A stretch of DNA of 64,000 nucleotides from an uncultured Armatimonadetes bacterium (GCA_963717145.1 OY970325.1:5024001-5088000), one strand, 5' to 3'. Shown: positions 13,030-30,649, counted from the stretch's first letter. Notes: generated by a model from the sequence alone, not told the origin. Numbers and translations are program-made.

Positions 13030-15420
13030 CTATTTCGCGAACAGGGGTCTCGTCACTTTGCCGGACGTGAGATCCAGAACACGTATGCGCTCCAGTGAGT
13101 CTGAGAGATCCACGAAGGCGATCATCCTGCCGTCGCTGTCTATGGCCGGCATGCTCGACGGCACGGCCACCAACTCTCGTGAGTCACTACCATCGAGCTT
13201 CATGGACGCAACATGCGGCTCTCCCGACGATATCGACGTGAACAGGATGCGGTCGCCATCCGGGAAGAAGACCGGCGGACTCGTGCATTCCGCCAGATAG
13301 ACTCCGTACTCTGAGACCACGTCCTCCGAGCGCACGAGACGCTCTGTGCCGGTTTCCAGGCCGACCAGCCAATACTCGATCATCAGCTTTCCCGGCTTAC
13401 TCGCAAGCGCCTGGAAAAGTATCGAGTCTCCCTTCGGCGACCAGGTGCAATCGGATAACGACCATTCGCGCTCATCCTCGGATCTGAGCTGAGTCAGTTG
13501 GCGCTCACCCTCTCCGGCGGTGTCCACCAGCCATATCTGATCGTTTCGGATAAACGCAACCAGGTTGCCCTGAGGCGAGACGGTGGGGAGAAGATCGACC
13601 ACGCCGGGCGGCGCAGGTTTCGCCAGGTTCTCCTGAGGCCCCATCATGCCGAGTCCCGAGTGCGGATTGCCCTCCTCCGCCGGGGGTGGAGCAGCCTCAT
13701 TGGCTGCCACAAGTACGCTCTGAGGGATGAAGCTCAGACTTGCGCTTGCCACGAGGATGCCCGCGGATGCCCGATCGTTCGAGGGTTTGTCTTCGTTGGT
13801 CGAAGGATCGGCCGGCGACGGAGTGGGCTCTGGGGTTGGTGCGGGCGCCTCAGAGGACGGCGCGGGCGCCTCGGGGGTCGGCGCGGGCGCCTCGGGGGTT
13901 GGCGCGGGCGCCTCAGCGGTCGGCGCAGGTGCCTCAGGCTTGGGCTTGTTCGTCAAGAGCCGGTAGCCCTGACCGTCGAGCTTGATGGTTGATACTCCCG
14001 CATCACGGTTCAGCCAGTCAGTGAAGAATACCGAATCGCCGCCGATTCTGGGCTGATCCGCGGCATTCTTGAGGCTCGAGAAAGGCTTCAGCGCCTCTTC
14101 CTCGGTCACGCGTTTGCCGGAATCCACGACAAACAGTCTCCCGGCGAAACCGAGGAGAAGCTTCTTGCCGTCCGGGTACCAGGAGATCGACCGTACAAGA
14201 CCGTTCCCGGGAAGAGCGGCGATCGCCTTCTCGCGGCTGCCTGACTTGGACCCGACGAACAGCTCCGTTGAGTGGTTCACATCTGACTGAAAGGCCAGGC
14301 GCTGGCGATCGGGTGACCACATCGGCATCCAGTATGAACTCCGGCTGCGGTTGAGTCTTTTCAGTCCCGTCCCGGAGGTGCTGCAGATATAGGTCTCGGG
14401 ACTGTAGGAGTCGGATGATGTGCCAGTGAATGCGACGGTCTTCCCATCAGGCGAGAACGATGCCGATGTCGGGTACACGCTGTCGGGAGTTAGGCACTTC
14501 AGGTCTTCGCCTGTCGATGCGACGCTCCACACGGCTGCATGGCTCTTCCTCCCTGCACAGAAGAACAGCCTGCTACTATCCGGTGACCAGGTTATCTTTC
14601 CGCCGTCAAAGGTGCGCACCGCGATGAGTCTGTCGGATCGGGTTTCGAGATCTATCACCTTGATCTTGGACCCACTTATCACGTCGGGCACGGCAAAAGC
14701 AAGATTGCGCCCGTCGGGTGAGTAGGCAGGCGCGCTGCAAAAACCCTTGTAGAGCAGCGTTAGCTCCTTGTCTTTCACCCCGACCGTCCAGATGCTGGCG
14801 CCGGTGGATCTGCCAACCACAAAGGCCAATGTGGATCCGTCCGGTGACCAGGCCCACTCACGCACCCAGAACTTCGTTGTGAGTCCGGTCGTGCCCACTC
14901 CGCCGACGCGTGTGAAAGACAGGTCTCTCGCATTGCCATCCTTGGAAACCGTGGCGAAGGAGACGAGAGAACCATCGAGTGACCAGGATGGGTTACTCGC
15001 GCCGGGTGGCAGGATGGTCAGCGGTGTCTCCTGGTCGGGACCTCCGCTGGGATCTATGGACCAATAGGCCGGACCGCCGCTACGAACGCTCCCGAACACA
15101 ATTGCTTTGCCGTCGCGTGTCCACATCGGGCCGTGCGCTCCTTTGCTCGTGAGTGGCCGAGCGCCGGTTCCGTCGGCTCTCATGACCCAGAGGTTTGGTA
15201 TTCCATGCAGGGAACCCGAGCAGAAAGCGATGCTCGTGCCGTCCGGAGACCAGGCGGCTTCCCATCCCCCGTTTGGGGCCGATAAGCCCGCGCATTCCGA
15301 GAACGCCGGCAATGCCAGTAAGGCGATGACCAGAAAGAACCTCAGGAATCTCGACAAGTTAGCCTCCGGACGATGGAAGGGCAGAGCATTCCCCCGCCAA
15401 TTCGAGCTGACAACTACCAT
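13030..15420 (-). CDS. Secreted TolB-like (PD40/WD40) beta-propeller protein with Pro-rich linker
   Basis: Signal peptide; many WSPDG repeats; (EAPAPTP)n linker. Confidence 0.85.
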   Translation of the reverse strand: MVVVSSNWRGNALPFHRPEANLSRFLRFFLVIALLALPAFSECAGLSAPNGGWEAAWSPDGTSIAFCSGSLHGIPNLWVMRADGTGARPLTSKGAHGPMWTRDGKAIVFGSVRSGGPAYWSIDPSGGPDQETPLTILPPGASNPSWSLDGSLVSFATVSKDGNARDLSFTRVGGVGTTGLTTKFWVREWAWSPDGSTLAFVVGRSTGASIWTVGVKDKELTLLYKGFCSAPAYSPDGRNLAFAVPDVISGSKIKVIDLETRSDRLIAVRTFDGGKITWSPDSSRLFFCAGRKSHAAVWSVASTGEDLKCLTPDSVYPTSASFSPDGKTVAFTGTSSDSYSPETYICSTSGTGLKRLNRSRSSYWMPMWSPDRQRLAFQSDVNHSTELFVGSKSGSREKAIAALPGNGLVRSISWYPDGKKLLLGFAGRLFVVDSGKRVTEEEALKPFSSLKNAADQPRIGGDSVFFTDWLNRDAGVSTIKLDGQGYRLLTNKPKPEAPAPTAEAPAPTPEAPAPTPEAPAPSSEAPAPTPEPTPSPADPSTNEDKPSNDRASAGILVASASLSFIPQSVLVAANEAAPPPAEEGNPHSGLGMMGPQENLAKPAPPGVVDLLPTVSPQGNLVAFIRNDQIWLVDTAGEGERQLTQLRSEDEREWSLSDCTWSPKGDSILFQALASKPGKLMIEYWLVGLETGTERLVRSEDVVSEYGVYLAECTSPPVFFPDGDRILFTSISSGEPHVASMKLDGSDSRELVAVPSSMPAIDSDGRMIAFVDLSDSLERIRVLDLTSGKVTRPLFAK
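13832..13938 (-). repeat. 21-bp coding tandem repeat (about 5 copies of EAPAPTP)
   Basis: Visible GGCGCGGGCGCCTC units with a 21-nt period. Confidence 0.85.
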
Positions 15421-15434
15421 GACTGCATTATCTC

Positions 15435-16892
15435 CTAGCCCACTGCCTCGCGCAATCGCGCGGCCTCACGCTCGATGACCGCACTGCCCGAACGCGACGA
15501 AGTGGCGACCCTCAGAAGCGTACCACCTGATGAGGGCATGATGCTGGCCCTGACCACAGTCCGGGCCACATAGAAAGAACAGAATACCCCAAGCAGCAAT
15601 ATCGCGAAACCGGCACATACCGCGGGCAACCCCGGGTTGCTTGCCACCTGGAGGCCCGTGTAGCTCACAGCGCTTTCCATGGTGATCCGGAATCCTTTGT
15701 ACTTGGCGGAACCGGAGATTGGTATCCAACCCAGGTTCGACCACGCGTCCTGGCCCTTATACTCCGGAAACCTGTCGTTCACCATGACCTCCGCAGCCGG
15801 GTGAATCGGCATGAAGCTGGCACTGATCTCTTCCCCTCCCACGTAGTCCGGAGCGAAATCGTGGACGAATATGCTGAGCTTCTGCTTGCCGATCTTTATC
15901 TGTCGGGGCTCCTGCTCCGAAACCATGTATAACTTGCCCTCCGGCCCGTTCTTCGTATCGACGCTGATCGGGACTCTCACGGATTCCCCATTCGCCCCGG
16001 TCACGACCAGATAGAAGCCCACGATCCCATAATCCGATTGATAGAAGGACACTCCGCGATAGGTCAGTGGGTGGTCGACGTCGACAACCTTGCCGGCGAC
16101 GAGCTTATCCGCATCATACACCTGCAGATCGCTCTTGTAGGCGGTCGGGTTGTGCTCGTCGTCGTGCTCGATGTAGAACTTCTTCAGTGCGACTCGGAAC
16201 TTGAGGTCCGCCGGTTTTTCCGAACGGCTCGGGAAGTAGCTGTTCGTGGATCGGCCTTCAACGATGGTTGTATAGCCCTCCAAGCCCAGCATACTCCCCA
16301 CCATACCGCCAAGAAAGATCACAAGAACGCTGACATGAGCAAGATATCGGCCCCACAGATTGGCGGTTCCCCTGGCTGCGTAGATCGAGATCTCGTCGCC
16401 CGTCCGCTCTTCACGCACCGAATAGTGCGCCGCGCGAAGCGCCCCCTTGACCTTCTCAGCCGTTTCATCAGTACCGGAGTCAGTCTGGATTGTCTGTGAT
16501 CCCTGCATCTTGCCTACCCGCGCGTGGCCGATCGCGACCTCCGGACGATATGCCTGCTTCCATGTACGGCTGAACCTGTTGATGCTGCACACCGCCAGGT
16601 TCGCTCCGATGAGCAGGATGATCAGTTGATACCAACTCGAGCGGTACAGATCAGTGAAACCGAGTGCTTTGAGGGTGGCGTAACCCCCGGGCCCAAACCG
16701 GGCATAGTCCTCAGGCGAAGCTCCTTGAGGGATGATGGTCCCGATGACCGAGACGGCGGCCAGTAACAGGAGCAACGTCACCGCCGTGCGCATCGAGCTG
16801 AAGGTCGTCCACAATATCTTTCCTAGATTCGTGCCGTCATTCGTATCAACGATATGCTCGGCGGTGTCTTCCGGGGCGAGACGCTCTGACAT
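15435..16892 (-). CDS. resB: Cytochrome c biogenesis protein ResB/CcsB (System II)
   Basis: FSSMRTA...IGTIIPQ, DLYRSSWY, CSINR, conserved His in YLAHVS, TGLQVASNPG. Confidence 0.9.
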   Translation of the reverse strand: MSERLAPEDTAEHIVDTNDGTNLGKILWTTFSSMRTAVTLLLLLAAVSVIGTIIPQGASPEDYARFGPGGYATLKALGFTDLYRSSWYQLIILLIGANLAVCSINRFSRTWKQAYRPEVAIGHARVGKMQGSQTIQTDSGTDETAEKVKGALRAAHYSVREERTGDEISIYAARGTANLWGRYLAHVSVLVIFLGGMVGSMLGLEGYTTIVEGRSTNSYFPSRSEKPADLKFRVALKKFYIEHDDEHNPTAYKSDLQVYDADKLVAGKVVDVDHPLTYRGVSFYQSDYGIVGFYLVVTGANGESVRVPISVDTKNGPEGKLYMVSEQEPRQIKIGKQKLSIFVHDFAPDYVGGEEISASFMPIHPAAEVMVNDRFPEYKGQDAWSNLGWIPISGSAKYKGFRITMESAVSYTGLQVASNPGLPAVCAGFAILLLGVFCSFYVARTVVRASIMPSSGGTLLRVATSSRSGSAVIEREAARLREAVG

Positions 16893-17108: not shown

Positions 17109-17137
17109 TTGACGGGAGGATTTCCGTGTGCTATACT
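17109..17137 (+). promoter_or_regulatory. sigma70 promoter for the cytochrome operon
   Basis: TTGACG-N17-TATACT with extended TG. Confidence 0.75.
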
Positions 17138-17249: not shown

Positions 17250-17669
17250 ATGAGAATCAGAGTGCTCATCTTATTGGTCCCATGTTTGGTTTTGGCGATG
17301 ATTCTGGGCCACGGGATACTCTCCGCGCAGGGCGGCAGCGCCTATGGCGGAGTGGAGAACTGCAAGATGTGCCACCCGGACATTTACACCGAATGGTCGA
17401 AGTCCGACCATGCGCGAGGATTCGAACTCCTGACAAACGTCGGCCAGGAGAAGAACGCTGAGTGCCTCCCTTGCCACACCACCGGATACGGTAAGGGCGG
17501 TTACGTGGACGAAGCCACAACCCCCGGATTGAAAGGCACGGCTTGTGAATCGTGTCACGGACCTGGCGCCGGTCATATGGGCGACAAGACCAAGATCACC
17601 AGGAAGCCGCCCGCCGGGACGTGCGAGGGCTGTCATCAGGCGACAAATATCCATTCTGTGACTAAGTAG
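17250..17669 (+). CDS. Tetraheme cytochrome c (c554-like)
   Basis: Signal peptide; 4 CxxCH; YGGVENCKMCH...WSKSDH...CESCHGPG. Confidence 0.9.
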   Translation: MRIRVLILLVPCLVLAMILGHGILSAQGGSAYGGVENCKMCHPDIYTEWSKSDHARGFELLTNVGQEKNAECLPCHTTGYGKGGYVDEATTPGLKGTACESCHGPGAGHMGDKTKITRKPPAGTCEGCHQATNIHSVTK

Positions 17670-17686: not shown

Positions 17687-19111
17687 ATGTCAAGGAAGTT
17701 TGAGACCAAACCAGTTCTGACTCTTATCGCCATCGGGATCTCGCTCCTGGTCGGTGGGATGCTGATCCCGTGGGCAGCGGATGCGCAGAGTGCGCCGCCG
17801 CAACCGCCCACGCCCAAGGCGGAGGTGGTTTCTACCGCGAGGTTCGTCGGTAGCCAGGGATGCCAGACCTGCCACTCGCAGGTCGCGGAACCTTGGTTGG
17901 CCAGTCCGCACGGTCGGGCTCTCACGCAAGAGGGCTTGCCGGAGGAACGGCGAGGCTGCGAGGCCTGTCACGGAGCGGGGAGCGCGCATGTCGGAAGTGC
18001 ATCGGCCAGCAAGATGTCTATTCCGATCGCGGCGGATCCGCCGGCGGCAAACAGCCTGTGCGGATCCTGTCATTTCGATCGCGAGCCGTCAACTGCACCC
18101 GATGCCCCGCACAGCTTATCCAAGGCTGAATGGACACGAAGCGCGCACGCGCGAAAGGATCTGTCCTGCCTGTCATGCCACTCCGGACATCCGAACGCGA
18201 ACGAGAAGGCGCTCGTGAGACCGGCCAAGGACCTGTGCCTGAGTTGCCATGCATCAGTGATGGAGGACGCTCCCGGCAAACCGGCGGCATACACCCATTC
18301 GCCTGTTGCGCAGGGACAGTGTACGTTGTGCCACGATCCGCATGGGGCGGCTGACCGGCGTATGGTGGCGGATGATGTGAATAAGGCGTGCGAAACGTGT
18401 CATGATGCCGGGACTCCCGAGATGGCAGCCGGCCATCAAGGGTTTGCCGTCAAGGGTGCGAAGTGCATTTCCTGCCATGACCCGCATTCACACAAAGCTT
18501 CCGACAAACTCATGCGGACGAAACAGCACATGCCGTTCAAGCAGCGAAACTGCGTGCTCTGTCATGGCAAGCCCGGGGCTGATGGGGCAGCGACTCTGGC
18601 TAAGCCGGCCAAGGAGCTGTGCGTATCCTGCCATCCGACGGGCAGCATCATGAAGGACGGCGAGAAAGCCCATGCTCCGGCGAAGGAGGGGCTTTGCACG
18701 GTATGCCACGACCCGCACGCGTCGAATGCCAAGGGCTTGCAGAAGACTCGTACTGCCTATGCGTGCTTCACCTGCCACAGCAAGGTTGAGATCGATACCC
18801 TATCCGCCCACAAGCATGGGGCGTTCAACAGCAATATGGACTGCACCGGTTGCCACAAGCCGCACAGCTCGCCGCAGGAGAAACTCCTGGTCAAGGCTCA
18901 GGGTGACCTATGCGGGCAGTGCCACAAGCACTCGGGCTCACATCCGATGGGAACCAGGAAAGACGGCACTCCCGTCATCGACCCGAATACCAGCAAGCCG
19001 ATGGTGTGCGCCAGTTGCCATAACCTGCACGGATCGAAATTCGCCATCCTGGCCAAGGCGGACAAAGGCAGAGACCTCTGCCTGCTGTGCCACCAGATGG
19101 AGCACAAGTAG
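17687..19111 (+). CDS. 16-heme cytochrome c (DmsE/MtrA-like start, paired CxxCH repeats)
   Basis: Signal peptide; 16 CxxCH counted. Confidence 0.92.
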   Translation: MSRKFETKPVLTLIAIGISLLVGGMLIPWAADAQSAPPQPPTPKAEVVSTARFVGSQGCQTCHSQVAEPWLASPHGRALTQEGLPEERRGCEACHGAGSAHVGSASASKMSIPIAADPPAANSLCGSCHFDREPSTAPDAPHSLSKAEWTRSAHARKDLSCLSCHSGHPNANEKALVRPAKDLCLSCHASVMEDAPGKPAAYTHSPVAQGQCTLCHDPHGAADRRMVADDVNKACETCHDAGTPEMAAGHQGFAVKGAKCISCHDPHSHKASDKLMRTKQHMPFKQRNCVLCHGKPGADGAATLAKPAKELCVSCHPTGSIMKDGEKAHAPAKEGLCTVCHDPHASNAKGLQKTRTAYACFTCHSKVEIDTLSAHKHGAFNSNMDCTGCHKPHSSPQEKLLVKAQGDLCGQCHKHSGSHPMGTRKDGTPVIDPNTSKPMVCASCHNLHGSKFAILAKADKGRDLCLLCHQMEHK

Positions 19112-20137
19112 ATGTATCGCACAGCTAAGCTCTTTGCAGCCTCGATAATTTGCGTGATGGCGCTAAGTATACAGGCGAGCGCTGCTCCGGAAAGCAGGAC
19201 ATTCAAGCTCACCTACTCGTACGTAGCCCACGGGTATTCGACCAGTCAGCGGTTCTCAAAGCCGAGCGGTCTCTTCTACGATACGAACCGTGACGAGCTG
19301 TATGTTGCCGACACGGGCAACAACCAGATCGTGATCTTTGATAAGAAGGGGATGCCGACCGCGCGGATCCGGCATAACGTGGAGGTCGCCTCATCGACCG
19401 ACAGAAAGTCACTCCCTGGAGAGCCCAAGAGCATTCTTGTCCGCAAGAACGGCGACATCCTGGTCACGGACAACCTGTGCAACTACGTGGACGTCCTCGA
19501 TTTTCGTGGCCGTTCGCTCGAGAAGATCTGGCCCGCGGACCTGCTCGGCTTGTCCCGAACCAAGGTTCAACCGCGCTGCCTTGCTATCGACGCTGCACAG
19601 AACATCTACGTGAGCGTGACAGGTGCGGCCAGCAGTATCCTGGTTTTCACACCCGAGTTCAAACTCAAGTCCGAGATAGGCCGGATCATAGGAGGCGGTA
19701 CCATGAAATCGGTGACCGGCCTCTGGGTGGACAACAGCGGCAAGGTATATGCCACGTATTCCCAGGGTGAGTGCGTGCGAGTCTACGCGGCGGATGGGAA
19801 GCAGCTTACGAGCTTCGGCGGACACGATGTCGGTTACGAGAACTTCTCCCTGCCGGTCGGTGTCGTGACGGACGCACAGAGCAACATCTGGGTGGTCGAC
19901 ACCCTCAGGCACATCGTCAGCGCGTTCAAGCAGGAGACAACGGACTCCGGTCTCACCGCGACCGTAATCCACGCGCTCGGCGGATACGGCAGCGGGGCCG
20001 GAGAGATGTCATTCCCGACGGCGCTTGCCGGTGACGGATCGAGCAAACTGTTCATACTAGAGGGAGCAGGCGCGAGGCTCCAGGCATTCAGCATAGATTT
20101 CGCGGCGCCCGCCCAGCAGGCGGGTGTGAAAACCTGA
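19112..20137 (+). CDS. NHL-repeat beta-propeller, secreted
   Basis: FSKPSGL...LYVADTGNNQI, FSLPVGV...WVVDT. Confidence 0.88.
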   Translation: MYRTAKLFAASIICVMALSIQASAAPESRTFKLTYSYVAHGYSTSQRFSKPSGLFYDTNRDELYVADTGNNQIVIFDKKGMPTARIRHNVEVASSTDRKSLPGEPKSILVRKNGDILVTDNLCNYVDVLDFRGRSLEKIWPADLLGLSRTKVQPRCLAIDAAQNIYVSVTGAASSILVFTPEFKLKSEIGRIIGGGTMKSVTGLWVDNSGKVYATYSQGECVRVYAADGKQLTSFGGHDVGYENFSLPVGVVTDAQSNIWVVDTLRHIVSAFKQETTDSGLTATVIHALGGYGSGAGEMSFPTALAGDGSSKLFILEGAGARLQAFSIDFAAPAQQAGVKT

Positions 20138-20263: not shown

Positions 20264-21328
20264 ATGAAAGTGATGGTAGGGCTTCTAATCACGGCGCTTG
20301 CGTTGTGTGGGGGCGCGGCTCTGGCCGGCGACTATCACAATAGCGCCACCCTGGTCTGCTCCGACTGCCACACGATGCACTACAGCGCTCAGCACGGCTA
20401 TGACGGAGTTACTCCGATCACGCTGGGAGCAGTTGGGCCGAACGAGAACCTGATCAAGGCTCCGACCCGCAATGCTCTGTGCCTGACGTGTCACGACAAT
20501 CAGGCCTATGCTCCGGACGTCTATGCAGCCAATACGGGGTCCCACGTTCGCAACGCAGGCGCTCTGAACAAGCTGGGTGATGCCGGCCTGTACGCTGAGT
20601 ACAAGGGACACACCCTGGGCTCACTTGCGTCCGCTCCCGGCGGCACGTGGGCGCCAACAATTCCGGCAGAGGGAGAGGCAGAGGGTATGACCTGCGGCAG
20701 TTGTCACGGCACGCACGGTTCGACCTACTACCGCAACCTGAAGAACAAGCCGGGCGGTTCAGCCGACAACACCTATGTCACGTATGCGGTCGGCACCAAC
20801 GACCTGACCAAGGATGTCTTCGAGCGCGATGCGACCCTCAACCAGGTCTCGACGCACTACGATGTCGCCAACGTTGACTTCAACGAGCCTGACTCGACGA
20901 AGTCGGCCTATGCCAACTGGTGCAAGAGCTGCCATACCAACTTCCACGGCGTATCCGGTGGAACTGAGGTCGGCGGCGCATCCGGCGGCGACATCAGCAG
21001 CCACTCGACCGGAGTGGAAGGAGTGCCCTGGCACCGACACCCGAGCGCTGACGTGAACATTGGTCAGAACGGCAACTCCAAGCTGACCCAGTACAACCAT
21101 GTCACGCATGTGAACAAGGTCAAGGTCATGAGCAATTCCGGCGACTGGGGCAATACGAGCACCGATGTCACCCCATCGTGCTTCTCCTGCCACAAGTCTC
21201 ACGGAAATCAGAATGCCTTCGGTCTGATTCACATGAGCGGCACCGGAACTCTGAGCGAACAGGGCGACGATGGCGGCGGCAACAACGTGAGAGGTCTCTG
21301 CAGACAGTGCCATTCGCAGGGCACGTAG
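20264..21328 (+). CDS. OmcS-like hexaheme cytochrome, paralog 1
   Basis: GGGAGG RBS; YH-x6-CSDCHTMH, APGG, YRNL, NWCxxCH, HP, CFSCHKSH, terminal CRQCH; 6 hemes. Confidence 0.85.
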   Translation: MKVMVGLLITALALCGGAALAGDYHNSATLVCSDCHTMHYSAQHGYDGVTPITLGAVGPNENLIKAPTRNALCLTCHDNQAYAPDVYAANTGSHVRNAGALNKLGDAGLYAEYKGHTLGSLASAPGGTWAPTIPAEGEAEGMTCGSCHGTHGSTYYRNLKNKPGGSADNTYVTYAVGTNDLTKDVFERDATLNQVSTHYDVANVDFNEPDSTKSAYANWCKSCHTNFHGVSGGTEVGGASGGDISSHSTGVEGVPWHRHPSADVNIGQNGNSKLTQYNHVTHVNKVKVMSNSGDWGNTSTDVTPSCFSCHKSHGNQNAFGLIHMSGTGTLSEQGDDGGGNNVRGLCRQCHSQGT

Positions 21329-21371: not shown

Positions 21372-21459
21372 CCTGTCGAGGCGAGGGATGGATCTCTCGC
21401 CTCGACAGGTTGCCTTGTGAGTAAACGGTTTCCGAGGGGCACCCCTCGGAAGCTGTTTT
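21372..21459 (+). terminator. Two stem-loops after omcS-like 1; the second has a U-tract
   Basis: CCTGTCGAGGCGAG..CTCGCCTCGACAGG; TTCCGAGGGG-CA-CCCCTCGGAA followed by GCTGTTTT. Confidence 0.65.
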
Positions 21460-21490
21460 GCTAGGTGCGCCGTTGACTTACAGAAGGGAC

Positions 21491-22537: not shown

Positions 22538-22583
22538 AGCCGGTCGCTGCGCAGTTTGCGTAGTTGTTCTCACGAGAACGCCG

Positions 22584-22698
22584 ACCGCTGGTCCTGAGTT
22601 CGCCGGTGAATGACGGCGTGTAACGAAGGACGGCCCTACTGCACCGAGCCGTCCTTCGTTACACGCCGTCATTCACCGGCGAACTCAGGACTAGCGGT
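22584..22698. repeat. Long palindromic element, family A copy 2
   Basis: Near-identical to 7716-7832, opposite orientation judged from the loop. Confidence 0.9.
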
Positions 22699-22949
22699 GG
22701 GGAAAACTGTTGTTCCACCTCGAATCCAGGATCATCCTCTCACTTGGTGCCATTCCAGGCAAAACCTGTCACTTCTACCAGTATCGTTCCAGCCCCTCAC
22801 CGTGGCACATACTATTACCAGGGAATCCCAGGATCGTGGCACATATTGTCAGCCGTAACTAGTGGCAAATGAGGGTATACAACAGTTAGGCTGAAATGCC
22901 CTGAGGCGGTCAGAAACATACGAGGATGGGTAAAATATTCTTGGCGGAC

Positions 22950-22978
22950 TCGACAAGAACTGAAAAACGTGCGATAAT
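22950..22978 (+). promoter_or_regulatory. Possible sigma70 promoter for omcS-like 3
   Basis: TCGACA-N17-GATAAT with TG extension. Confidence 0.4.
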
Positions 22979-23133: not shown

Positions 23134-23185
23134 ACCCTTCGAGGCACGGTTCATTCCTGGCGAGAGGTATTTGGGGGGATGGCAT

Positions 23186-24142
23186 ATGTCGAGGTTGTTA
23201 GTACTTATCGAATGTGCGGTCTTGACCGTAGGCATCATGGCGACATGCGGTTCAGCCCAGGCGGCGAACTATCACTTCCGCGATACGCTGATCTGCTCTG
23301 ACTGCCACATCTCGCACGCCAGCGCCAGCCACGGGGACGGAGGCGACGCGGCCTCTTACGGCGAGCCTCCGAATGGTAACCTGCTCAAGTCTTCATCATC
23401 CAGCGACGTGTGTCTGCGCTGCCACGATGGACAGGCCGGTGTGCCTGACGTCGTCGCCGGGGATGTGAACAAGCCGTCTGAGCCATATGATGGACAGGAA
23501 CGGGCGGCCGGCGCCTTCGCCGATGGTACCGCGGACAACTGGAAAGGGCACAACCTGCCCGGACAGGGCAGCGTCGGACCAGGCGGTTGTGACTCCTGTC
23601 ACGAGCCTCATGGGAACACCAGTTACCGCAACCTGCGAACTCTCGACGGTTCTGGAGACGAGTTGGTGGCCTTCGTAAACCCCGCCGCGGCCGCGTTGGA
23701 CAAGTACAGCCGTGCGAACGTGGGCTACGGAGGGAATATCGGAGACAAGCTCTGCGGGGGTTGCCACGGTTTTGGCGCGATATCGAATACTCGTTCTTCG
23801 GGCGGACAGCACTTCAATCGGCACCCCAGCACCAGCAGCGAGGCCGTCATCTCCATGGAATCCGGGCGATCCAGTATCGACCCGATCCACTGGGTTTCCG
23901 GAGAGGGCAGCGGTTTCACGGCGGGCGAACTCGTAGTGCCGCGCGTGCCGTTCGCGGTGAGTTCAGCCACCAGTTACTCCGATGCCAGGACGGTGTCCGC
24001 CGCCAACGAGGTGTCCTGCCTGTCATGCCACAAAGCCCACGGCTCAGTGCACGCATTCGGCATGATCTGGCCGTACGGGAGCGGTGACGGAGCGGCCGGC
24101 GGCTCCGGCTGCAACCAATGCCACAACATCTCCCGCGAGTGA
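23186..24142 (+). CDS. OmcS-like hexaheme cytochrome, paralog 3
   Basis: YH-x6-CSDCHISH, GHNL, YRNL, VSCLSCHKAHGS, CNQCH; 6 hemes. Confidence 0.85.
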   Translation: MSRLLVLIECAVLTVGIMATCGSAQAANYHFRDTLICSDCHISHASASHGDGGDAASYGEPPNGNLLKSSSSSDVCLRCHDGQAGVPDVVAGDVNKPSEPYDGQERAAGAFADGTADNWKGHNLPGQGSVGPGGCDSCHEPHGNTSYRNLRTLDGSGDELVAFVNPAAAALDKYSRANVGYGGNIGDKLCGGCHGFGAISNTRSSGGQHFNRHPSTSSEAVISMESGRSSIDPIHWVSGEGSGFTAGELVVPRVPFAVSSATSYSDARTVSAANEVSCLSCHKAHGSVHAFGMIWPYGSGDGAAGGSGCNQCHNISRE

Positions 24143-24144
24143 CG

Positions 24145-25279
24145 TTACTTCAGAACGCCCACGATTCCCGTAGCGGTCTGCTCTATCCCACTCTGCAGAT
24201 CCTTCGGGCCGCTGAGGAATACGCCAAACCGACCTACAGCCAAATCCAGGTGGTAGTATCCGAAACCGGATAGCTCCGTGTACGCGGGCAGCGTCTCGAA
24301 GACGGTCTGCTGCTGTCCGGCGTGGTAGGTCTGCAGGAACTTCTCCGCAGTCGCCTTAGTGCGATAGTCCACGAGCCGAACGTCGACAAACTTCCCGCCG
24401 TCGTTGAGCTGATACCGCGTGTCTATCGCATCGTGGAAATGCTTCTTGTACGTGACTTCACCCAGTTTCGCGTTGCCGACATCCTTGAGTAGCACCTTCA
24501 GCTCGGCTTCGCCGTAGGTTGCAGTCTCGTCCAGATATCGAGGCGTCCCACCAGTTGCTCCCTGTTGATGCGCAATGGCAGCGACTTGCGACTCCCCTGA
24601 TGTGTCGTTCTTGACCGGAGCCGTTTCGGTGGCTGTGTTATTGGCCGTGTGCGCGGCAGCCGTGCTTCCGCCCAGGCTCACCAGTATATCCGGCGAGGAT
24701 TTCATCATGGATTTCGCCATTGCGGATACGGCCAGCTTGGAGAGCTTGCCGAGCGAGGAGATTCGGCCGATGTCGAAAACCTTGACGCCCTCCGCTCCCG
24801 TCTTGCTTATGGTGGCGGCCCACATAATATCCGCGGTTCGAGCGTTCACCGAGCCGCGCGCTGAACGAGATCGACGGATACGAGTCAGAGCCGACCCGCA
24901 CCTCGCCATATTCCTCGACTACGCCGATGACATACGCATCCACGTTAAGTGCGGGCTGAAGCTTCTGGCACATCTCCTGCGTTATGCCCTCAGTGATCCG
25001 AACGCTCTGTGCCTGCAGGGCCGAGTAGACCACCCCCGGCTCCACAACATCGAAGCCGCCGGTTGAGAGCAGGTACGTGACAACCGTGTTCGTAAGCACG
25101 CGTCCGGCATCCTGATCCTTGCTGACGTTGTCAAAGGGAAGGACGGCTATCCTTACCCGCTGACCCGCGGGCCTGTTGACGAACACCTGAGTCGAAGGGC
25201 CTCCGTCATTGCACCCGGAGACCAGGGCAAGCACCGAGAATGCCATCAGGGCTTTTACGAGTAGAGAGCTTTTCTTCAT
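24145..25279 (-). CDS. Lipoprotein with CsgG/LpoB-like N-terminal domain (one frameshift near 24850)
   Basis: Lipobox LVSGC; RIAVLPFDN; ISFSARL joins VNARTADIMWAA across ORFs 24638-25279 and 24145-24909. Confidence 0.7.
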
Positions 25280-25311
25280 GTTGCACCAATCCTCATGTTC
25301 TGGTTGATTCC

Positions 25312-27069
25312 TCAGAGATATCTAGCATAATACAGGGCAAAATGTCTTTGCCAGTCTATCAGTCCGGTATTCCCACTGTGAAAGTCGTAATATAACTCCA
25401 GCGATGAACGATCCAGGAACGAATGCGATAGACGAAGCACGGATCCTCTTCTCCGCTGGCCAACAAACTGCCAGTTGATCCAATCCCACTGCTTGTCCGA
25501 TTGGAAGTTGTAGTTCAGGCTAAGGTTACTCGCGGGATCGATCTGCCACCTCACGCCCAGCGCCGGTGACAGCGTTTCGGATATGCTCGATCCATTGCTA
25601 ACCTGGTAGGAAAGCCTCAGGTTCAGGCTGAGTTGGTAGTTGGGCATCCACAGAGCGTCGACGTCCACCGCATCCGTGGTCTGTGATACGGGACTGGCGT
25701 CCGCACTGAATGAATCGGTCTGCGAGCGACGATAGGAGGCGCCCATCGACATCCCGCCGGCGGTCCTGGTCCTGAAGGAGATGCCCGCAAAGCTCCCACT
25801 GAACCCCCCGTCCGACCCAATCGTGGACTTGTTTCGTCCATAGTCGAGGCTGATATCCGCGGCACGGCTGAGTGCGCTCTGGAGTGAAACCTGGAGCGAA
25901 TTCTGCGAAGAGCCGGAACTCAGCGCACCGGCGTAATCCGATCTGGACAGCGATGCGTTCAGGACGCTCTGGTCGCTCAACCGAGCGGACACCCCCAGGT
26001 TGCGATTGTTGGAGTCGAAGGAGATGACGCGGCCCAGAGCGTCGGTGATCGACGTCTCCTGTCGCCGATCGGTGTAATCGGCGCTGAGACCCGGCAATAC
26101 CTGTGCTCTCACATTGAGGGAAAGCGCATTATCGCCGGAATTGCTGTTCACTGCGGCTGCTCCCTGGTGGCTGGATTGGTCAGAATACTCCAGGCTCGCA
26201 GCGATCGCCCTGGTGGGGGTCGCCTGGAGTCGGAGGACCTGGCGCTTCGTATCCATTCTGGAGTTGCCCTCGGCGCGCTCATTGTCCGTCGCGTAGTTGC
26301 TCAGTTCGCCAAAGAGGGTGAGTCCCTGCAGCAGAGTCTGATTCAGGAAGACCGACGATCTCCGAGTCATCTGCGTATTCCCGGAGGATCCGCTGTACGC
26401 CGATGTCTGCCTTGACTGGTCGAAGGTGAATCGGAGCGGCATCAGGTCGTAGTAGGAACCGAGCAGCCAGGTGTTCGAGGCGTAGCTGGACGCCGAATCC
26501 CCGAAGGAGCTGCCGGACACATTTCGCGAGTACTGCAGGTTCAGGACGGGATATGCCGGTTGCGAGATAAGCATGCTGAGGTTATAGTTGGACGAATTTC
26601 CGATCGACGTGCCGCCCTGGCCGAGTGTTTCGCTCTGATAGTCGTTGCGGTTCACTCTGCCCATCAGGGTGTAGCTGGGTTGGCGGTAATACAGGTTGAT
26701 CCCCAGGCTTCTGTTGTCCTGACTGCCGAACTGGTCGTTCGTGGAGGATGTACCGAGCGTTACATCGCTTATCAGGGCGGAGAAGGGCATAACAGGCCCG
26801 CGCATGGCAAGGCTGTAGTTCGTCGAAAGATGACCGTCACCATTCGGCGATTCCCCCGCTTTCTTGTTCTCGAAGAAGTCGTATCGCATCTGTACCTGCA
26901 GACCCAGAGTTTGCGCACCCGTGCATTCATGTGACTGCGCGAGTAAGACCAGTGCAATCAAGAGCGTCAACAGTATCATCGGTGCGCCGTAACCGCCAAT
27001 GTTCGCGGTATTCGCGTATTCTGACATATCGATTATCAGTCTCAGTGACATCCCGAGGTGGTAGCGCAA
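25312..27069 (-). CDS. Outer-membrane beta-barrel protein (true start probably 27027 or 26979)
   Basis: Signal peptide; alternating amphipathic strands rich in S/Y/L; aromatic C-terminal strand HFALYYARYL. Confidence 0.75.
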   Translation of the reverse strand: MRYHLGMSLRLIIDMSEYANTANIGGYGAPMILLTLLIALVLLAQSHECTGAQTLGLQVQMRYDFFENKKAGESPNGDGHLSTNYSLAMRGPVMPFSALISDVTLGTSSTNDQFGSQDNRSLGINLYYRQPSYTLMGRVNRNDYQSETLGQGGTSIGNSSNYNLSMLISQPAYPVLNLQYSRNVSGSSFGDSASSYASNTWLLGSYYDLMPLRFTFDQSRQTSAYSGSSGNTQMTRRSSVFLNQTLLQGLTLFGELSNYATDNERAEGNSRMDTKRQVLRLQATPTRAIAASLEYSDQSSHQGAAAVNSNSGDNALSLNVRAQVLPGLSADYTDRRQETSITDALGRVISFDSNNRNLGVSARLSDQSVLNASLSRSDYAGALSSGSSQNSLQVSLQSALSRAADISLDYGRNKSTIGSDGGFSGSFAGISFRTRTAGGMSMGASYRRSQTDSFSADASPVSQTTDAVDVDALWMPNYQLSLNLRLSYQVSNGSSISETLSPALGVRWQIDPASNLSLNYNFQSDKQWDWINWQFVGQRRRGSVLRLSHSFLDRSSLELYYDFHSGNTGLIDWQRHFALYYARYL

Positions 27070-28544
27070 CTGTTCTCGGAGTACGCTCCACCGTTGGCAT
27101 GAGTGTAGGACGTGATTCCCTGTCCTCCCGCCAGATAATAAGGCGGACCGTCACTCACGTATACAATGAGGTGTCTCCGTTTGAACCCATGCGGCACGGC
27201 GGAGTGACACTGGAAACACCCGGCCCGCGCATGCTCTGACTTGCGATGGAGATTGTCACTCCCTTTGCGGAAATTCGTCCGGTTCGCGTCGCCTCCGCCC
27301 TGCCCATACGTGCTCCAGTCATGGCAGACGAAGCACAGATCGGACTGGGTGCCGGTCCTCCCGGTGTTATCGGAAGCGCCCGCCACCGCCTTGAAGCGCC
27401 TCTTGAGCGAGTAGTTGAATTGCGATCCATGAGGGCCCTGTGCGCTTCCGGGACTCGAGTCACTCGCGTGACAGTCGGTGCAGGCCATTGCGGAGTTCGG
27501 CCCCCACGGGCTGACATAAGCAGGCGGATTCGCTGACCCGAACACGACATCATCGGTAGGGACAGATGAAGCCGTTTGACCCGTAACATTGTGATAGGCC
27601 GGATTGCCGGGGCTGAACTCCAGCCCCTGGTCCGTTTCGCGTGTCCCGTCAGTCGTGTAGGGCGCAACACTCCCCCATGACCAGGAGGAGTGGCACTTGA
27701 GACAGAGATAGTACTCGTGCTCCGTCGCCGTGGACTGGAACTGCTCGACCGCATAACTGGTCGGCGCCGTCCATGGAGCAGTTGAGAAGGTCGGTCTGAC
27801 ACCCCAGGAGCCCAGAAGCATCTCGCCGATATTCGAAGACTGGGGCGCTCGCAGGCCCGACTTGGCGAAGTGCGTGTTATGGCAGTCCACGCATTCCACA
27901 TGACGGTTCGATCCGCTGAGAAGCGGGTTCGGATTCACGGCGACCGATGCACCCTCCGCGGTACTATCGTGCTTGCCGCGCTGATTGGCGACTCGATGGG
28001 AATAAGCTCTGTTCATCTGCGTCTGAATGTCGATGGCGCCCGTCGGCCTGAAACCCGTTCCATGGCACGTGAAACATGTCTCCTCTTCGGTCCGGCCGGT
28101 CATGTGGGGATATGCGCCTGTGAGATCGCCCGAGCCGTGCGGATTGTGGCACTGCGTACAAGAGCCGACGGGCTTGCTGTTCATGCTGGAAGCCGAAGCC
28201 GAGTGGCCGCTCATGTTATATTGCGTCTGCCCGTAGTATGAGCGCAGACTCCCCGTGTGGCAGGTGTAGCAGAGATCGTTGTTGTTCGCTGTCCACAGCC
28301 CGAAATCCTGGTTGGCCGTTCCATGGCCCACGTGACATTGGGCGCAACTGCCCTTCGGAAGAGACGTATCGCGCTGCACGCCGGATATGGCGCTTCCATG
28401 AGGCGTGCGAGTGTAGTATCCGCCATCTGCTTCGGCGCGCAGAGTCAGGCCGACGAGGATGAGAGGCATGATCGCTGCCCATGCTATCCGGAGATATGCG
28501 CTCAAATGACTATCGCATCCTACTTGAAGTGGCATTGCTGGCAC
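27042..28544 (-). CDS. Multiheme cytochrome c, 9 CxxCH plus terminal Cx5CH (start uncertain)
   Basis: 9 canonical motifs counted; ends CATTSGCH*. Confidence 0.9.
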   Translation of the reverse strand: MPAMPLQVGCDSHLSAYLRIAWAAIMPLILVGLTLRAEADGGYYTRTPHGSAISGVQRDTSLPKGSCAQCHVGHGTANQDFGLWTANNNDLCYTCHTGSLRSYYGQTQYNMSGHSASASSMNSKPVGSCTQCHNPHGSGDLTGAYPHMTGRTEEETCFTCHGTGFRPTGAIDIQTQMNRAYSHRVANQRGKHDSTAEGASVAVNPNPLLSGSNRHVECVDCHNTHFAKSGLRAPQSSNIGEMLLGSWGVRPTFSTAPWTAPTSYAVEQFQSTATEHEYYLCLKCHSSWSWGSVAPYTTDGTRETDQGLEFSPGNPAYHNVTGQTASSVPTDDVVFGSANPPAYVSPWGPNSAMACTDCHASDSSPGSAQGPHGSQFNYSLKRRFKAVAGASDNTGRTGTQSDLCFVCHDWSTYGQGGGDANRTNFRKGSDNLHRKSEHARAGCFQCHSAVPHGFKRRHLIVYVSDGPPYYLAGGQGITSYTHANGGAYSENSCATTSGCH

Positions 28545-29542
28545 CCCGAGATCGTGTCCGCCCCGCTTTCGATGTAAGGCCAGACCATACCATACTTGTA
28601 CTTACTCCCGTGAGCCTTGTGGCACGAAAGGCAAGTCACGGTGTCTCCGACGCCGCCGGTCGTGTTGCTTCCCAGTTGGCTGCCGTACCTGAGTCTCGGC
28701 ACGCCCAGGGCCGAGTCGCCGATATCACCGCCGAAGCCCGTGTAGTCGCCGGGCGTTCCCAATTGCCAGTTCGTGGCGTCTGCGTGGGGGTATGCTCCGC
28801 CGATCTCGACGTTGCTCGGGTGACCCTTGAAGTGGGCAGGGGCGCTCCCCGCAGAATTCTCTGACAGCGCATCGTGACAGTCCGCGCACCAGGAGCTGAT
28901 GTTGTTCTGTGCGTAGAATGCCACGTTTGACGCGTTATAGGCTACAGACGGATTCGGATTCACGATATCAACAGGCGTGGTTTCCTTGATCTGCGTGCCG
29001 ATGAGAATGTCCCACGAGCCCGGATGCCTGGGATTCGGATCCGATATGAGATTCCGGTAGTTCGGGGCGCCGTGAGTATCATGGCAGTCCGAGCAGAGCA
29101 GCCCGCCGGCTTTCGTGTAGGTGCTCGACAGTGGAGCCGTGACTGAGACGGTGGGGCTCACGTCGTGGCCATAGGGATTCGCCGCACCGATAAAGTCGCC
29201 CTGAAAGAAGCCGGCGCTGGATCCGTACTTGCTGTCGTAGGAGTTCGAAACGACATTCGTCGGGCTCGCGGATGTACCGGTCGAGACGATGTCGGGCGCT
29301 CGGGAATCCGTGCCATTGTGACAACTCATACAGAGCCCTATCTGGCCCATGGAGTTCTTCAGCAGATGCTCGGTCGGCGTCAATACCTCGCCCTGGCTGC
29401 TGGCGTGCTGGGTGTGGCAGTCCGAGCAGATGCTCTCGGTGACGTGATGATACTCCCCCGACATTGTGTTCCGAGGAAGAAGCAGGCATACGCCTGCGAC
29501 TGCGACTATGGCGGCTATCAGCCTCTTGGTCTGGAAACGCAT
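28520..29542 (-). CDS. OmcS-like hexaheme cytochrome, paralog 4
   Basis: YH-x6-CSDCHTQH, SAGFF, GHDV, CSDCHDTHG-YRNL, SSWCADCH, VTCLSCHKAHGS, CQQCH. Confidence 0.87.
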   Translation of the reverse strand: MRFQTKRLIAAIVAVAGVCLLLPRNTMSGEYHHVTESICSDCHTQHASSQGEVLTPTEHLLKNSMGQIGLCMSCHNGTDSRAPDIVSTGTSASPTNVVSNSYDSKYGSSAGFFQGDFIGAANPYGHDVSPTVSVTAPLSSTYTKAGGLLCSDCHDTHGAPNYRNLISDPNPRHPGSWDILIGTQIKETTPVDIVNPNPSVAYNASNVAFYAQNNISSWCADCHDALSENSAGSAPAHFKGHPSNVEIGGAYPHADATNWQLGTPGDYTGFGGDIGDSALGVPRLRYGSQLGSNTTGGVGDTVTCLSCHKAHGSKYKYGMVWPYIESGADTISGCQQCHFK

Positions 29543-29570
29543 AAACTGACCCTGCTTCACGCGCACACTC

Positions 29571-29649
29571 TGTCATTCTGAGCGAAGTGAAGAATCCGGC
29601 TGATCGAGCAAGGCGACTCGCTGGATTCTTCACTTCGCTCAGAATGACA
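29571..29649. repeat. Palindromic intergenic element (TGTCATTCTGAGCGAAG type)
   Basis: TGTCATTCTGAGCGAAGTGAAGAATCC...GGATTCTTCACTTCGCTCAGAATGACA; fragments also near 6315 and 56892. Confidence 0.85.
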
Positions 29650-29662
29650 CGTATAATCCGGG

Positions 29663-30649
29663 TTAGAGCCCGGCCGGTCTGAACGGTTCGAAGGGCCGGG
29701 CAAGAGCGAAAACCTGCATCCTGCGGGATCCTGACTCCAGGACGATCACGTGCCCGAAGCTGTCTATATCAGCATCGACAGGGTAGAAGAGCATGCCTTC
29801 GCCCAAGCCGTAGTTGCCGAATCTCCGAAGGAACATGCCGGTCCTGTCAAATACCTTCAGCCCGTGCTGCGCCCTGTCCACAATCCAAATCTGGTCATTC
29901 CGATCCAGGAACATTGCGGTCGGAAACGCCAGATCCTGCTCAGCCTCGCCGTGCAGGCCGAACCGGTACAGGTACTTTCCGTTCCGGTCGAACACCTGGA
30001 TCGGAGGCCCAATGGAATCGAGCACGTATATTCGGCCCTGGCGGTCTACGGCCACATCCTGGAGCATCTTGAACTTATACTGGTCCGACTCGAGAGCCGC
30101 AATGCGGAATCTGATCTTTCTCTGTTTGTCAAACACGCATATCTCGTTGTTGGCCCTATCCACAACATACAGGTTGCCATCCCGGTCGAAGGTCATTCTC
30201 CCGGGCTTGGGCTGCTCATTGCCCTCAACGGCAGGGAGTTCGAGAGTGGTCAGCTCTTCCTTCGCGCCGATGATCTTTATCGGCCCACCCTCGTTCTCGG
30301 CGACGTACACGTCGCCTTTGGAGTCAACTGCCACCGCCAGGGGGGACTTCAGGCCTTGCTTCGGCCCGTATCGGAATCTCGGTATGCCCTGCCGGCTGAA
30401 CGCGTCCAGCGTTCCCGTCTTGACGTCTGACACGTATATCAGCCCTGATCGCTCATTCAGGGCCAGCGAAGCGGGGTCGCCAAACCAGCTCTTGCCATCA
30501 TAGCCATTGACCGCGTAACGGAATGTGAAGTCCTGTTCCGCCTGGTCAAAGACGGCAGCGCGCGAGATGCCGTCTGTGAATGCACAACAGAACAAAACGA
30601 CGACTGCGAGAAGCACTTTCAGAGCCACAACCAACCTGGCTAACCTCAT
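29663..30649 (-). CDS. NHL-repeat beta-propeller, secreted
   Basis: Repeated P..VAVD..G.VYV.D motifs; signal peptide. Confidence 0.9.
   Translation of the reverse strand: MRLARLVVALKVLLAVVVLFCCAFTDGISRAAVFDQAEQDFTFRYAVNGYDGKSWFGDPASLALNERSGLIYVSDVKTGTLDAFSRQGIPRFRYGPKQGLKSPLAVAVDSKGDVYVAENEGGPIKIIGAKEELTTLELPAVEGNEQPKPGRMTFDRDGNLYVVDRANNEICVFDKQRKIRFRIAALESDQYKFKMLQDVAVDRQGRIYVLDSIGPPIQVFDRNGKYLYRFGLHGEAEQDLAFPTAMFLDRNDQIWIVDRAQHGLKVFDRTGMFLRRFGNYGLGEGMLFYPVDADIDSFGHVIVLESGSRRMQVFALARPFEPFRPAGL

Follow-up and report, generated by a model that had tools for sequence, protein, structure and literature searches.

A candidate OmcS-type extracellular cytochrome system in the genome of an uncultured Armatimonadota bacterium

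Known OmcS-type systems and the Armatimonadota island

The closest described relatives of the locus studied here are the hexahaem cytochrome OmcS of Geobacter sulfurreducens (GSU2504; PDB 6EF8 and 6NEF) and the osc genes that accompany it. Our locus is an island of c-type cytochrome genes and their companions at positions 13,030-30,649 of a 64,000-nt stretch (the window) from the genome of an uncultured Armatimonadota bacterium (OY970325.1:5024001-5088000). The osc system of Geobacter is said to have been described by Shen et al. in 2025 under a title that terms the machinery 'widespread and ancient', and the abstract reportedly makes OscH a prolyl isomerase, OscEFG channel-like and OscD beta-propeller-like. 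In the accessible text of another source, folding is the role proposed for OscH, secretion for OscE/F/G and morphology for OscD, while OscC, OscI and OscJ are GSU2501, GSU2495 and GSU2494, respectively (PMC13194489). The neighbours of omcS include, in the available portion of an earlier paper, the GSU2497 lipoprotein, a YVTN beta-propeller and the cytochromes GSU2494, GSU2495, GSU2501 and GSU2503 (PMC3495685). Outside Geobacter, studies based on FeGenie have called OmcS genes in Krumholzibacteria (10.1101/2020.09.22.307553) and have listed Eisenbacteria and Zixibacteria as iron-cycling taxa (10.1101/2020.09.22.307553; PMC8478452), as far as the accessible parts of these papers go.

The genome in question is one closed contig of 5.37 Mb. 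Its host is a soil bacterium of the Armatimonadota, a little-studied phylum known mainly for sugar-degrading heterotrophs. An earlier reading of the window from its sequence only had suspected an Armatimonadota-like lineage outside Geobacter, and this was borne out, the host being no member of the Geobacterales. We believe that the island, 17.6 kb long, is probably an Armatimonadota version of an OmcS-type (osc-like) extracellular cytochrome system, most likely one for outer-membrane electron transfer. The seven c-type cytochrome genes with 53 CxxCH motifs (4, 16, 6, 6, 6, 9 and 6) that the sequence-only reading had counted were reproduced exactly, and its two NHL propellers, ResB and TolB-like protein were all recovered by scans with Pfam and NCBIfam profiles. 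A scan of the 5.37 Mb found 19 stop-to-stop open reading frames (ORFs) with at least three CxxCH, seven of which lie inside the island, and all four hexahaem-family genes of the genome are among its genes. The density of cytochromes in the island is far above chance for this genome.

Facing operons had also been proposed, and the arrangement was confirmed to be both convergent and divergent. The plus-strand run, from the tetrahaem gene c4 to the hexahaem gene hexC, stops at 24142, and the minus-strand run, from the NHL propeller gene NHL2 to a lipoprotein gene, stops at 24145; the ResB and TolB-like genes are divergent from c4. The four hexahaem genes belong to two subfamilies and are spread over three transcription units. 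Hydropathy analysis gave a single N-terminal signal-like hydrophobic segment and no clear later membrane helix for all products except ResB, with a borderline hydrophobic stretch near residue 555 of the TolB-like protein. Consensus promoter-like sites were found upstream of NHL2, ResB, c4 and hexC, but they are weak evidence since the 10 sites compare with 5.6 ± 2.3 expected from shuffled sequences.

In the kinds of its parts (propeller, outer-membrane module, large periplasmic cytochromes) the island resembles the companions of omcS, as the sequence-only reading had held. In both cases an OmcS-like gene stands beside propeller, lipoprotein and large multihaem genes, a likeness drawn from descriptions of the Geobacter genes. 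The two loci also differ. No prolyl isomerase such as OscH was found among the window ORFs scanned, the propellers are of the NHL rather than the YVTN kind, and a single fused lipoprotein of the PelC/GNA1162 kind carries an extra C-terminal domain. The island further encodes a ResB paralogue, a TolB-like protein and a nonahaem cytochrome (c9) whose core is OmcS-like, and its host belongs to the Armatimonadota. A 16-haem cytochrome (c16) and c4 may be functional analogues of OscI (GSU2495) and OscJ (GSU2494).

The hexahaem cytochromes and their relation to OmcS

Two of the hexahaem genes, hexA (20264..21328) and hexB (21458..22537), lie on the plus strand and are of type 1; the products are 55% identical, and in the type-1 clade hexA groups with copies from the canonical operon described below. 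Of type 2 are the divergent hexC (23171..24142, plus strand; 38% identical to hexA), which has its own promoter-like site at 22950-22978, and hexD (28520..29566, minus strand), which is directly upstream of c9 and the barrel gene. Each of the four encodes six CxxCH motifs. When hexA was used as a single sequence in a phmmer search of the PDB, no match was obtained at E ≤ 10. A profile built from 38 members of the hexahaem family matched OmcS (6ef8_A) at E = 4e-13, the next chain being at E = 0.044. When only the four window paralogues were used for the profile, OmcS was matched at E = 2e-10, with the next chain at 0.3. As a control for matches caused by the haem motifs, the c9 profile gave motif-level PDB matches only, the best at 1.8e-4, and OmcS was absent at E ≤ 1.

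The alignment begins at residue 1 of mature OmcS (F-H), opposite (Y/F)-H in the family, and the spacing of His, seven residues, CxxCH, two residues and His is the same in both. Every further CxxCH, together with the histidines in GH, CH..HG, RHP and CHkaHG, pairs with OmcS; all six motifs are colinear, and both proteins finish at the last haem motif, which is the C-terminus of each. OmcS and the window hexahaems thus share the order of the haem motifs, the non-motif histidines and the whole course from the mature N-terminus to the C-terminal haem. They differ in size, mature OmcS having 407 aa compared with about 330 aa here, and no single sequence is significant against OmcS.

Conservation of the ligands was followed in an alignment of 247 members, consisting of the four window proteins and 243 of 269 fetched proteins (300-460 aa, at least five CxxCH). 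Exactly six CxxCH are present in 234 of the 243 non-window members. Six histidines outside the motifs are kept almost throughout (H25 in 241, H39 in 239, H116 in 247, H151 in 247, H259 in 245 and H313 in 247 members), and all eight non-histidine entries at H39 are gaps. H39 aligns with His16 of OmcS, which Wang et al. in 2019 reportedly identified as the ligand of haem 5 between subunits. The accessible parts of two papers state that the sixth ligand of haem 5 in OmcS is supplied by the adjacent monomer (PMC7096707; PMC9473688). Because of the profile matches, the colinear motifs and the conserved histidines, we regard the four hexahaems as true remote homologues of OmcS and members of its superfamily, and in this respect the profile searches agree with the claim of OmcS-type hexahaems. 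That these proteins form filaments is a separate matter, to which we give slightly less than an even chance. Prediction of a complex between two hexA chains (residues 23-354) in the presence of four haems gave no verdict (score 0.01) and weighs neither way on binding.

A FastTree phylogeny was calculated from 88 hexahaem copies, namely those whose best match is a window hexahaem (at least 85% coverage, at least six CxxCH, <520 aa) and the four window copies. It separates type 1 (77 rows) from type 2 (11 rows) with an SH-like support of 100. Type 1 comprises hexA, hexB and the canonical operon copies, and type 2 comprises hexC, hexD and second copies from Zixibacteria, Ignavibacteria, Acidobacteriota and Eisenbacteria. 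HexB is sister to a copy in a locus titled Armatimonadetes (L011; support 98) and hexD to a copy in a locus titled Capsulimonadaceae (L054; support 100), so the paralogues are older than the split of these lineages. The placement of hexC is unsure because of its long branch. Wherever both types occur, type 2 is the one that precedes c9 (L063, L064, L078 and the window).

Two giant relatives, P0246 (1879 aa) and P0254 (2555 aa), open with an entire OmcS-like hexahaem module, which is followed by numerous further CxxCH motifs and finally by long repeated domains of a non-haem kind. On reading their sequences, these end domains resemble discoidin/F5-8 type C domains, and the proteins may be surface cytochromes fused to binding domains.

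The outer-membrane module, its companion cytochromes and the proposed electron path

The gene for c9 (27042..28544, minus strand) encodes nine CxxCH and a tenth, atypical CX(n)CH at the C-terminus. This last motif, CX3-5CH, has C493, C499 and H500 invariant in 15 homologues; the window c9 ends right behind it (27042-27065), and most homologues extend about 10 residues further. When the hexahaem and c9 profiles were compared with hhalign (Prob 98%, E = 1.8e-13, 245 columns), haems 1-6 of the hexahaems aligned with haems 3-8 of c9, and c9 therefore seems to be an OmcS-type core flanked on either side by two additional haems. A natural fusion of the two proteins, P0261 (752 aa), found among the representatives of the family, consists of a complete hexahaem in residues 8-300 (34% identity to hexA, E = 2e-44) followed from residue 302 by c9, starting at the mature end of c9 (36%, E = 6e-62). 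This fusion argues for contact between hexahaem and c9, in which the start of c9 would be turned towards haem 6 of the hexahaem.

The 585-aa ORF that follows c9 (25312..27069, minus strand; true start probably an internal Met before the signal-like segment) had been called a beta-barrel. That identification is probable, resting on indirect signs. Neither Pfam and NCBIfam profiles nor PDB sequences matched the ORF, and a word search turned up just four close relatives. An hhalign comparison of the window protein and its L054 homologue with a 12-member subgroup from the same operon position gave Prob 95.7% and E = 1e-8 over 426 columns, and this subgroup is in turn linked to a 15-member subgroup from the same position (Prob 99.9%, E = 4.5e-33). 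A profile hidden Markov model (HMM) of the 15 sequences did not match the window protein, the linkage being through the 12-member subgroup by hhalign only. Outer-membrane barrels commonly end in F, and so do all four of the printed members of the 12-member subgroup. The window protein contains 21 alternating amphipathic 9-mers, compared with 11.4 ± 2.2 (maximum 17) in 200 shuffles, and its Atlas features score 0.97 to hypothetical clusters of Eisenbacteria and Acidobacteriota and 0.93 to clusters of outer-membrane protein (OMP) barrels and porins. From these features we infer that it is an outer-membrane barrel.

The last gene of the minus-strand operon (24145..25279) encodes an outer-membrane lipoprotein of the PelC/GNA1162 (DUF799) kind with an additional C-terminal domain of about 200 aa. 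It had been described as a CsgG/LpoB-like lipoprotein. The lipobox (LVSGC) agrees with a lipoprotein, while the likeness to CsgG did not hold, PelC and GNA1162 being the nearest solved relatives. A profile of 18 lipoproteins from relative loci matched PelC at E = 3.6e-13 (5t11), 6.9e-13 (5t10), 1.9e-12 (9h80_C) and 2.1e-11 (5t0z), and GNA1162 at 3e-7 (4hrv); LpoB gave 0.16 and CsgG 0.56. With a profile of the Armatimonadota type, GNA1162 (4hrv, 2e-7) came before PelC (0.009), and the C-terminal half of that type has no sequence relative in the PDB. A CsgG secretion pore, considered as a candidate for this protein, was ruled out since CsgG structures reached only E = 0.56.

With PelC (PDB 5T10, 5T11, 5T0Z, 9H80) the window protein shares the lipobox, the PelC-like domain and a gene position beside an outer-membrane barrel; it differs in its extra domain, in the lack of pel genes or a tetratricopeptide-repeat barrel PelB, and in the cytochrome context found in all loci looked at. 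Marmont et al. in 2017 reportedly placed a PelC ring beneath an outer-membrane porin, and by analogy our lipoprotein would sit under the barrel. The resemblance to a polysaccharide export protein raises the alternative that the cytochromes form a purely periplasmic electron network and that barrel and lipoprotein serve some other export, for example of polysaccharide, as PelC does. A cluster of formate dehydrogenase and hydrogenase genes that begins 138 bp from NHL2 would fit such a network. We consider it improbable, however, since in dozens of loci from many phyla the barrel and lipoprotein genes lie within the cytochrome operon, between c9 and a large cytochrome. No pel or other polysaccharide genes were found among the 48 window ORFs scanned, and the neighbouring molybdoenzyme looks cytoplasmic, with no twin-arginine leader seen by eye at its N-terminus.

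Judging from comparison with its relatives, the lipoprotein gene is broken as assembled here, and the cause may be a true mutation or a wrongly called base. The annotated ORF (24638-25279) has 213 aa, including the LVSGC lipobox, an arginine-rich tail that does not look like protein, and a weak GNA1162-like match. A tblastn search with the intact 386-aa homologue from L054 aligned to 25282-24851 in frame -2 and to 24849-24148 in frame -3, so that a surplus base near 24850 divides the gene into ORFs of 213 and 226 aa. At this site the sequence (...CTCGGTGAAC...) has just a GG dinucleotide and no long homopolymer. The nearest relatives (77% and 75% identity) are intact at 377 aa. Lengths of 347-417 aa were found in 35 of the 36 non-self matches; 30 of the 36 carry PF05643, and one relative is named PelC by JGI. 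A contig from a related strain in a metagenome (23480-25401) spans the gene with exactly one gap somewhere along its length. One could read the break as the mark of a decaying remnant, a system that no longer works in the host strain after the frameshift disabled export, particularly as nearly all relatives are full length and the site offers no long homopolymer. We find this reading very hard to credit: the other 12 island genes are open and full length in comparison with their homologues, and a single-base assembly error is possible.

The two remaining cytochromes are encoded at the start of the plus-strand run. The product of c4 (17250..17669) is a periplasmic tetrahaem protein of the cytochrome c554 type (4 CxxCH; PF13435, E = 7e-15; PDB 1bvb, c554, E = 1e-10) with an N-terminal signal-like segment, and a promoter-like site lies at 17109-17137. 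The c16 gene (17687..19111, plus strand) encodes 16 CxxCH and an MtrA/DmsE-like N-terminal half: TIGR03508 (the DmsE family) matched with 171.6 bits, under its cut-off of 192, the protein having 16 rather than 10 haems. Chain A of PDB 6r2q matched at E = 3.7e-14 across residues 32-240; 6r2q is presumably the Shewanella Mtr complex and this chain MtrA.

These matches bring in a second alternative, in which the same parts do without a filament. A conduit like MtrCAB would then be formed by the barrel and c9 together with a single hexahaem or a small number of them, and the hexahaems would be surface reductases or oxidases acting as monomers or short oligomers. The order multihaem, multihaem, barrel is common to both systems, hexD-c9-barrel mirroring mtrC-mtrA-mtrB, and c16 is MtrA-like. 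PF22113 (MtrC/MtrF domain II/IV; cut-off 30) matched c9 with 45.5 bits and hexA with 30.2 bits, the fusion P0261 joins one hexahaem covalently to c9, and four divergent paralogues in two deep subfamilies would suit specialised surface reductases as well as filament subunits. Unlike MtrCAB (PDB 6R2Q), however, the window has outer cytochromes that are OmcS-like rather than MtrC/OmcA-like lipoproteins, a PelC-kind lipoprotein in the operon and a barrel with no match to PF11854 (MtrB/PioB), whereas another barrel of the same genome does match this family. The hexahaems have no lipobox for surface anchoring, in contrast to MtrC (PMC7096707, in its accessible part), and they keep the full set of OmcS ligands, including, apart from the gaps, the histidine aligned with the one donated by the neighbouring subunit. 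We regard the conduit as possible but doubtful.

The barrel that matches PF11854 (26.2 bits, cut-off 23) belongs to a second electron-export cluster at 3930001-3949000 of the genome. This cluster also encodes an NrfB-like 10-haem protein, a 26-haem NapC/NirT-like protein, two cytochromes b561, 11-haem and 9-haem cytochromes and a 1067-aa protein without a Pfam match. With its MtrB/PioB-type porin and two cytochrome b561 genes, the cluster shows that the host is otherwise equipped for such physiology, and it could feed the periplasmic cytochromes of the island.

NHL propeller 1 (19112..20137, plus strand; PF01436, E = 2.5e-11) is encoded directly upstream of hexA. NHL propeller 2 (29663..30649, minus strand; PF01436, E = 3.7e-23), encoded directly upstream of hexD, is the first gene of the minus-strand operon and has a promoter-like site at 30773-30745 (11 of 12 matches). 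The two propellers share 23% identity (E = 7e-28). The TolB-like exported protein (13030..15420, minus strand; PF07676, E = 1.5e-37) has two PD40 beta-propeller regions joined by a linker rich in Pro, Ala and Glu. It is not TolB proper, since it scores 186 bits on TIGR02800 (TolB), under the cut-off of 343. The ResB gene (15435..16892, minus strand; PF05140, E = 4e-80; promoter-like site 17018-16990, 11 of 12 consensus matches) is a second copy of this component of System II cytochrome c maturation. Another ResB gene is found elsewhere in the genome at about 144 kb, and two CcsA genes lie at 4.115 and 4.118 Mb, about 0.9 Mb from the island, which has none of its own. The sequence-only reading had called the system self-contained. 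This was overstated: the island has ResB without CcsA, Pfam and NCBIfam scans found no inner-membrane quinol oxidase in it, no prolyl isomerase was found, and its lipoprotein gene is frameshifted.

Within an OmcS-type extracellular system, the parts of the island could be arranged as follows. Haem would be attached in the periplasm by System II, using the island ResB paralogue and CcsA encoded elsewhere. Electrons would come from quinol oxidases elsewhere, for example from the cytochrome b561/NapC-like cluster at 3.94 Mb, and would be carried through the periplasm by the c554-type tetrahaem and the MtrA-like 16-haem protein. The 585-aa barrel, with the PelC/GNA1162-like lipoprotein on its periplasmic face, would serve as the passage through, or the anchor in, the outer membrane. 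At or in this passage c9 would touch a hexahaem directly, as the conserved adjacency of the genes and the natural fusion suggest. The hexahaems may lie outside the cell, stacked head to tail as OmcS is, and the histidine three residues after the CxxCH of haem 1 would then ligate haem 5 of the neighbouring subunit; both of these steps are taken over from OmcS by homology. The NHL propellers may be assembly or shape factors. Electrons could flow in either direction, export and uptake both being compatible with the sequence.

A more specific version of this scheme is a heteromeric, templated wire. In it c9 would be the fixed base in the ring of barrel and PelC-like protein, hexD would bind to c9 just as successive OmcS subunits bind to each other, and hexA and hexB would extend the chain. 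Hints of such a wire are given by the fusion of hexahaem and c9, by the alignment of haems 1-6 with haems 3-8 of c9, and by the co-occurring hexahaem types with type 2 beside c9. We think it unlikely in this detailed form. If true, it would be an outer-membrane-rooted cytochrome filament with a dedicated nucleator, and would explain the anchoring and charging of OmcS-type wires, matters called speculative in reviews (PMC12307469).

Several points weigh against an OmcS-type extracellular system. Homology to OmcS is no proof of polymerisation, and the OmcS paralogues of Geobacter, OmcT, OscC and OmcJ, are to our knowledge not known to form filaments. In P0261 c9 caps the haem-6 end of the hexahaem, an arrangement that suits a single terminal unit as well as the base of a filament. 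No OscH-like prolyl isomerase was found among the 48 window ORFs of at least 120 aa, nor among 38 flank ORFs of nine related loci. On account of the frameshift, the export module may be inactive in the host, provided that the extra base is not an assembly error. Finally, the hexahaem family was present in 12 of 301 sampled genomes of the phylum (the host counted) and in none of seven other genomes of the same family, so the system is an accessory trait.

Distribution and surroundings of the island

Relatives of the hexahaems were searched for in two ways. A word-indexed search yielded 897 hexahaem-family proteins at E ≤ 1e-3 among 4299 candidates scored, with members named from Armatimonadota, Eisenbacteria, Krumholzibacteria, Bacteroidota and others. 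An exhaustive profile search gave 1938, 738 and 257 cluster representatives at E ≤ 1e-3, 1e-10 and 1e-30, respectively. A hexahaem relative was encoded by 224 stretches (one genome per species), of which the best 79 loci were kept, and the window proteins were compared by BLASTP with all ORFs of these loci. Homologues of NHL were found in 72-74 of the 79 loci, a large multihaem protein related to c16 in 58-59, the lipoprotein in 52-58 and c9 in 42-55, followed by c4 (10 loci), the TolB-like protein (3), ResB (1) and the barrel (1). These counts are lower bounds, since many loci are cut by contig ends. The NHL homologues immediately precede the hexahaem gene. The three loci with a TolB-like homologue inside the island are L054 and L055, both with titles of Armatimonadota lineages, and L066, which is 100% identical to a locus from the same phylum.

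A recurrent gene order emerged from the comparison: NHL, hexahaem, c9, a protein of about 560 aa, two lipoproteins of about 200 aa and a very large cytochrome. The minus-strand operon of the window matches this order exactly up to the lipoprotein, and NHL-hexahaem-nonahaem-barrel-lipoprotein is the operon core in most of the 79 loci (Eisenbacteria, Zixibacteria, Acidobacteriota and others). The very large cytochrome has 42 CxxCH in 42 of 71 ORFs (best match c16, at least three CxxCH). Such 42-CxxCH ORFs are about 1100-1300 aa long and lie about 6 kb downstream of the hexahaem gene (L008, L015, L019, L030 and others), and a conserved ORF of 160-225 aa without a Pfam match stands between the second lipoprotein gene and the 42-haem gene. 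The whole island recurs colinearly in L054, where c4, c16, NHL, hexahaem, TolB-like, NHL, hexahaem, c9, barrel and lipoprotein genes follow each other on one strand; the identities range from 31% (barrel) to 67% (c4) and are mostly 44-53%.

With the compact operon of Eisenbacteria, Krumholzibacteria, Zixibacteria, Latescibacterota, Acidobacteriota and others, the window thus shares the order NHL2-hexD-c9-barrel-lipoprotein. Identity between the hexahaems, taken from the best tblastn segment, is 43-53% but falls to 37% in two outlier loci, and the barrel families are homologous by hhalign. Five features are particular to the Armatimonadota island. It has four hexahaems of two subfamilies in three transcription units; c16 and the c554-type c4 replace the 42-haem protein; one long lipoprotein (377-386-aa type) with a C-terminal domain, broken here, stands in place of two of about 200 aa; and a TolB-like double propeller and a dedicated ResB paralogue have been added.

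The sequence-only reading knew of no characterised system of this kind in such a lineage, which overstates the case in view of the many phyla that have the core operon and of the OmcS-like genes already reported in Krumholzibacteria (10.1101/2020.09.22.307553, in its accessible part). This kind of system is already known from Geobacter and is common in uncultured bacteria; the island is a lineage-specific version, and its novelty is smaller than had been supposed. In the searchable literature we found no description of the compact operon (NHL, hexahaem, c9, barrel, two lipoproteins, 42-haem protein) besides the OmcS calls of FeGenie. A link between OmcS and Armatimonadota was not found there either, and papers on multihaem extracellular electron transfer in armatimonads may already propose one. 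The size of the family, the OmcS core of c9, the hexahaem-c9 fusions and the presence of lipoproteins like the PelC ring, as opposed to CsgG pores, bear on the export and anchoring of cytochromes. A cultured host, if one exists, would provide a handle on an OmcS-type system outside Geobacter.

Soil metagenomes contain close relatives of the island. Parts of the stretch occur in eight sequencing runs, all of DNA; seven are labelled soil metagenome and the eighth carries no organism label, and none has more than 0.27 of the words. No RNA run was among the runs listed. Contigs that are 90-99% related (four runs compared, three labelled as soil and one unlabelled) cover most of the island. The GC content of the island is 0.590, compared with 0.606 ± 0.013 for the genome (8th percentile), and gives no clear sign of recent transfer. 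A plasmid-borne homologue of hexA was not found. The whole window has no tRNA genes, and no Rfam families were found at 8000-36000. An integrase-core (rve) gene is located at 707-1891 of the window, about 11 kb from the island.

Both intergenic palindromes of the island belong to repeat families and are visible as depth spikes in the metagenome contigs. The first, downstream of hexB (22581..22701), has two 54-nt arms that are 96% complementary and occurs at about 106 places in the genome; contig depth climbs to 245.7 around it (run X3, bin 22438-23025). The second, between NHL2 and hexD (29571..29649), has 30-nt arms that are 97% complementary and occurs at about 50 places.

Upstream of the island, at 6418-12780, the window contains a sulfur-relay-like set of genes, which encodes a Cys/Met PLP enzyme, ThiF, a JAB domain protein, a NirA-like sulfite/nitrite reductase fused to TusA and a double-cubane-cluster reductase. 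On the other side, on the opposite strand and 138 bp from NHL2, a formate-hydrogenlyase-like set extends from 30787 to 46366. It comprises an FdhH-like molybdoenzyme, HydB/AsrA-like and NAD-binding Fe-S subunits, the HycI protease, a fused NuoC/D-type [NiFe] large subunit, a small subunit, three antiporter-like membrane subunits, a NuoH-like subunit and HypB. Another ORF, which encodes five CxxCH, is found at 5092033-5092551 of the genome, about 4 kb past the end of the window.

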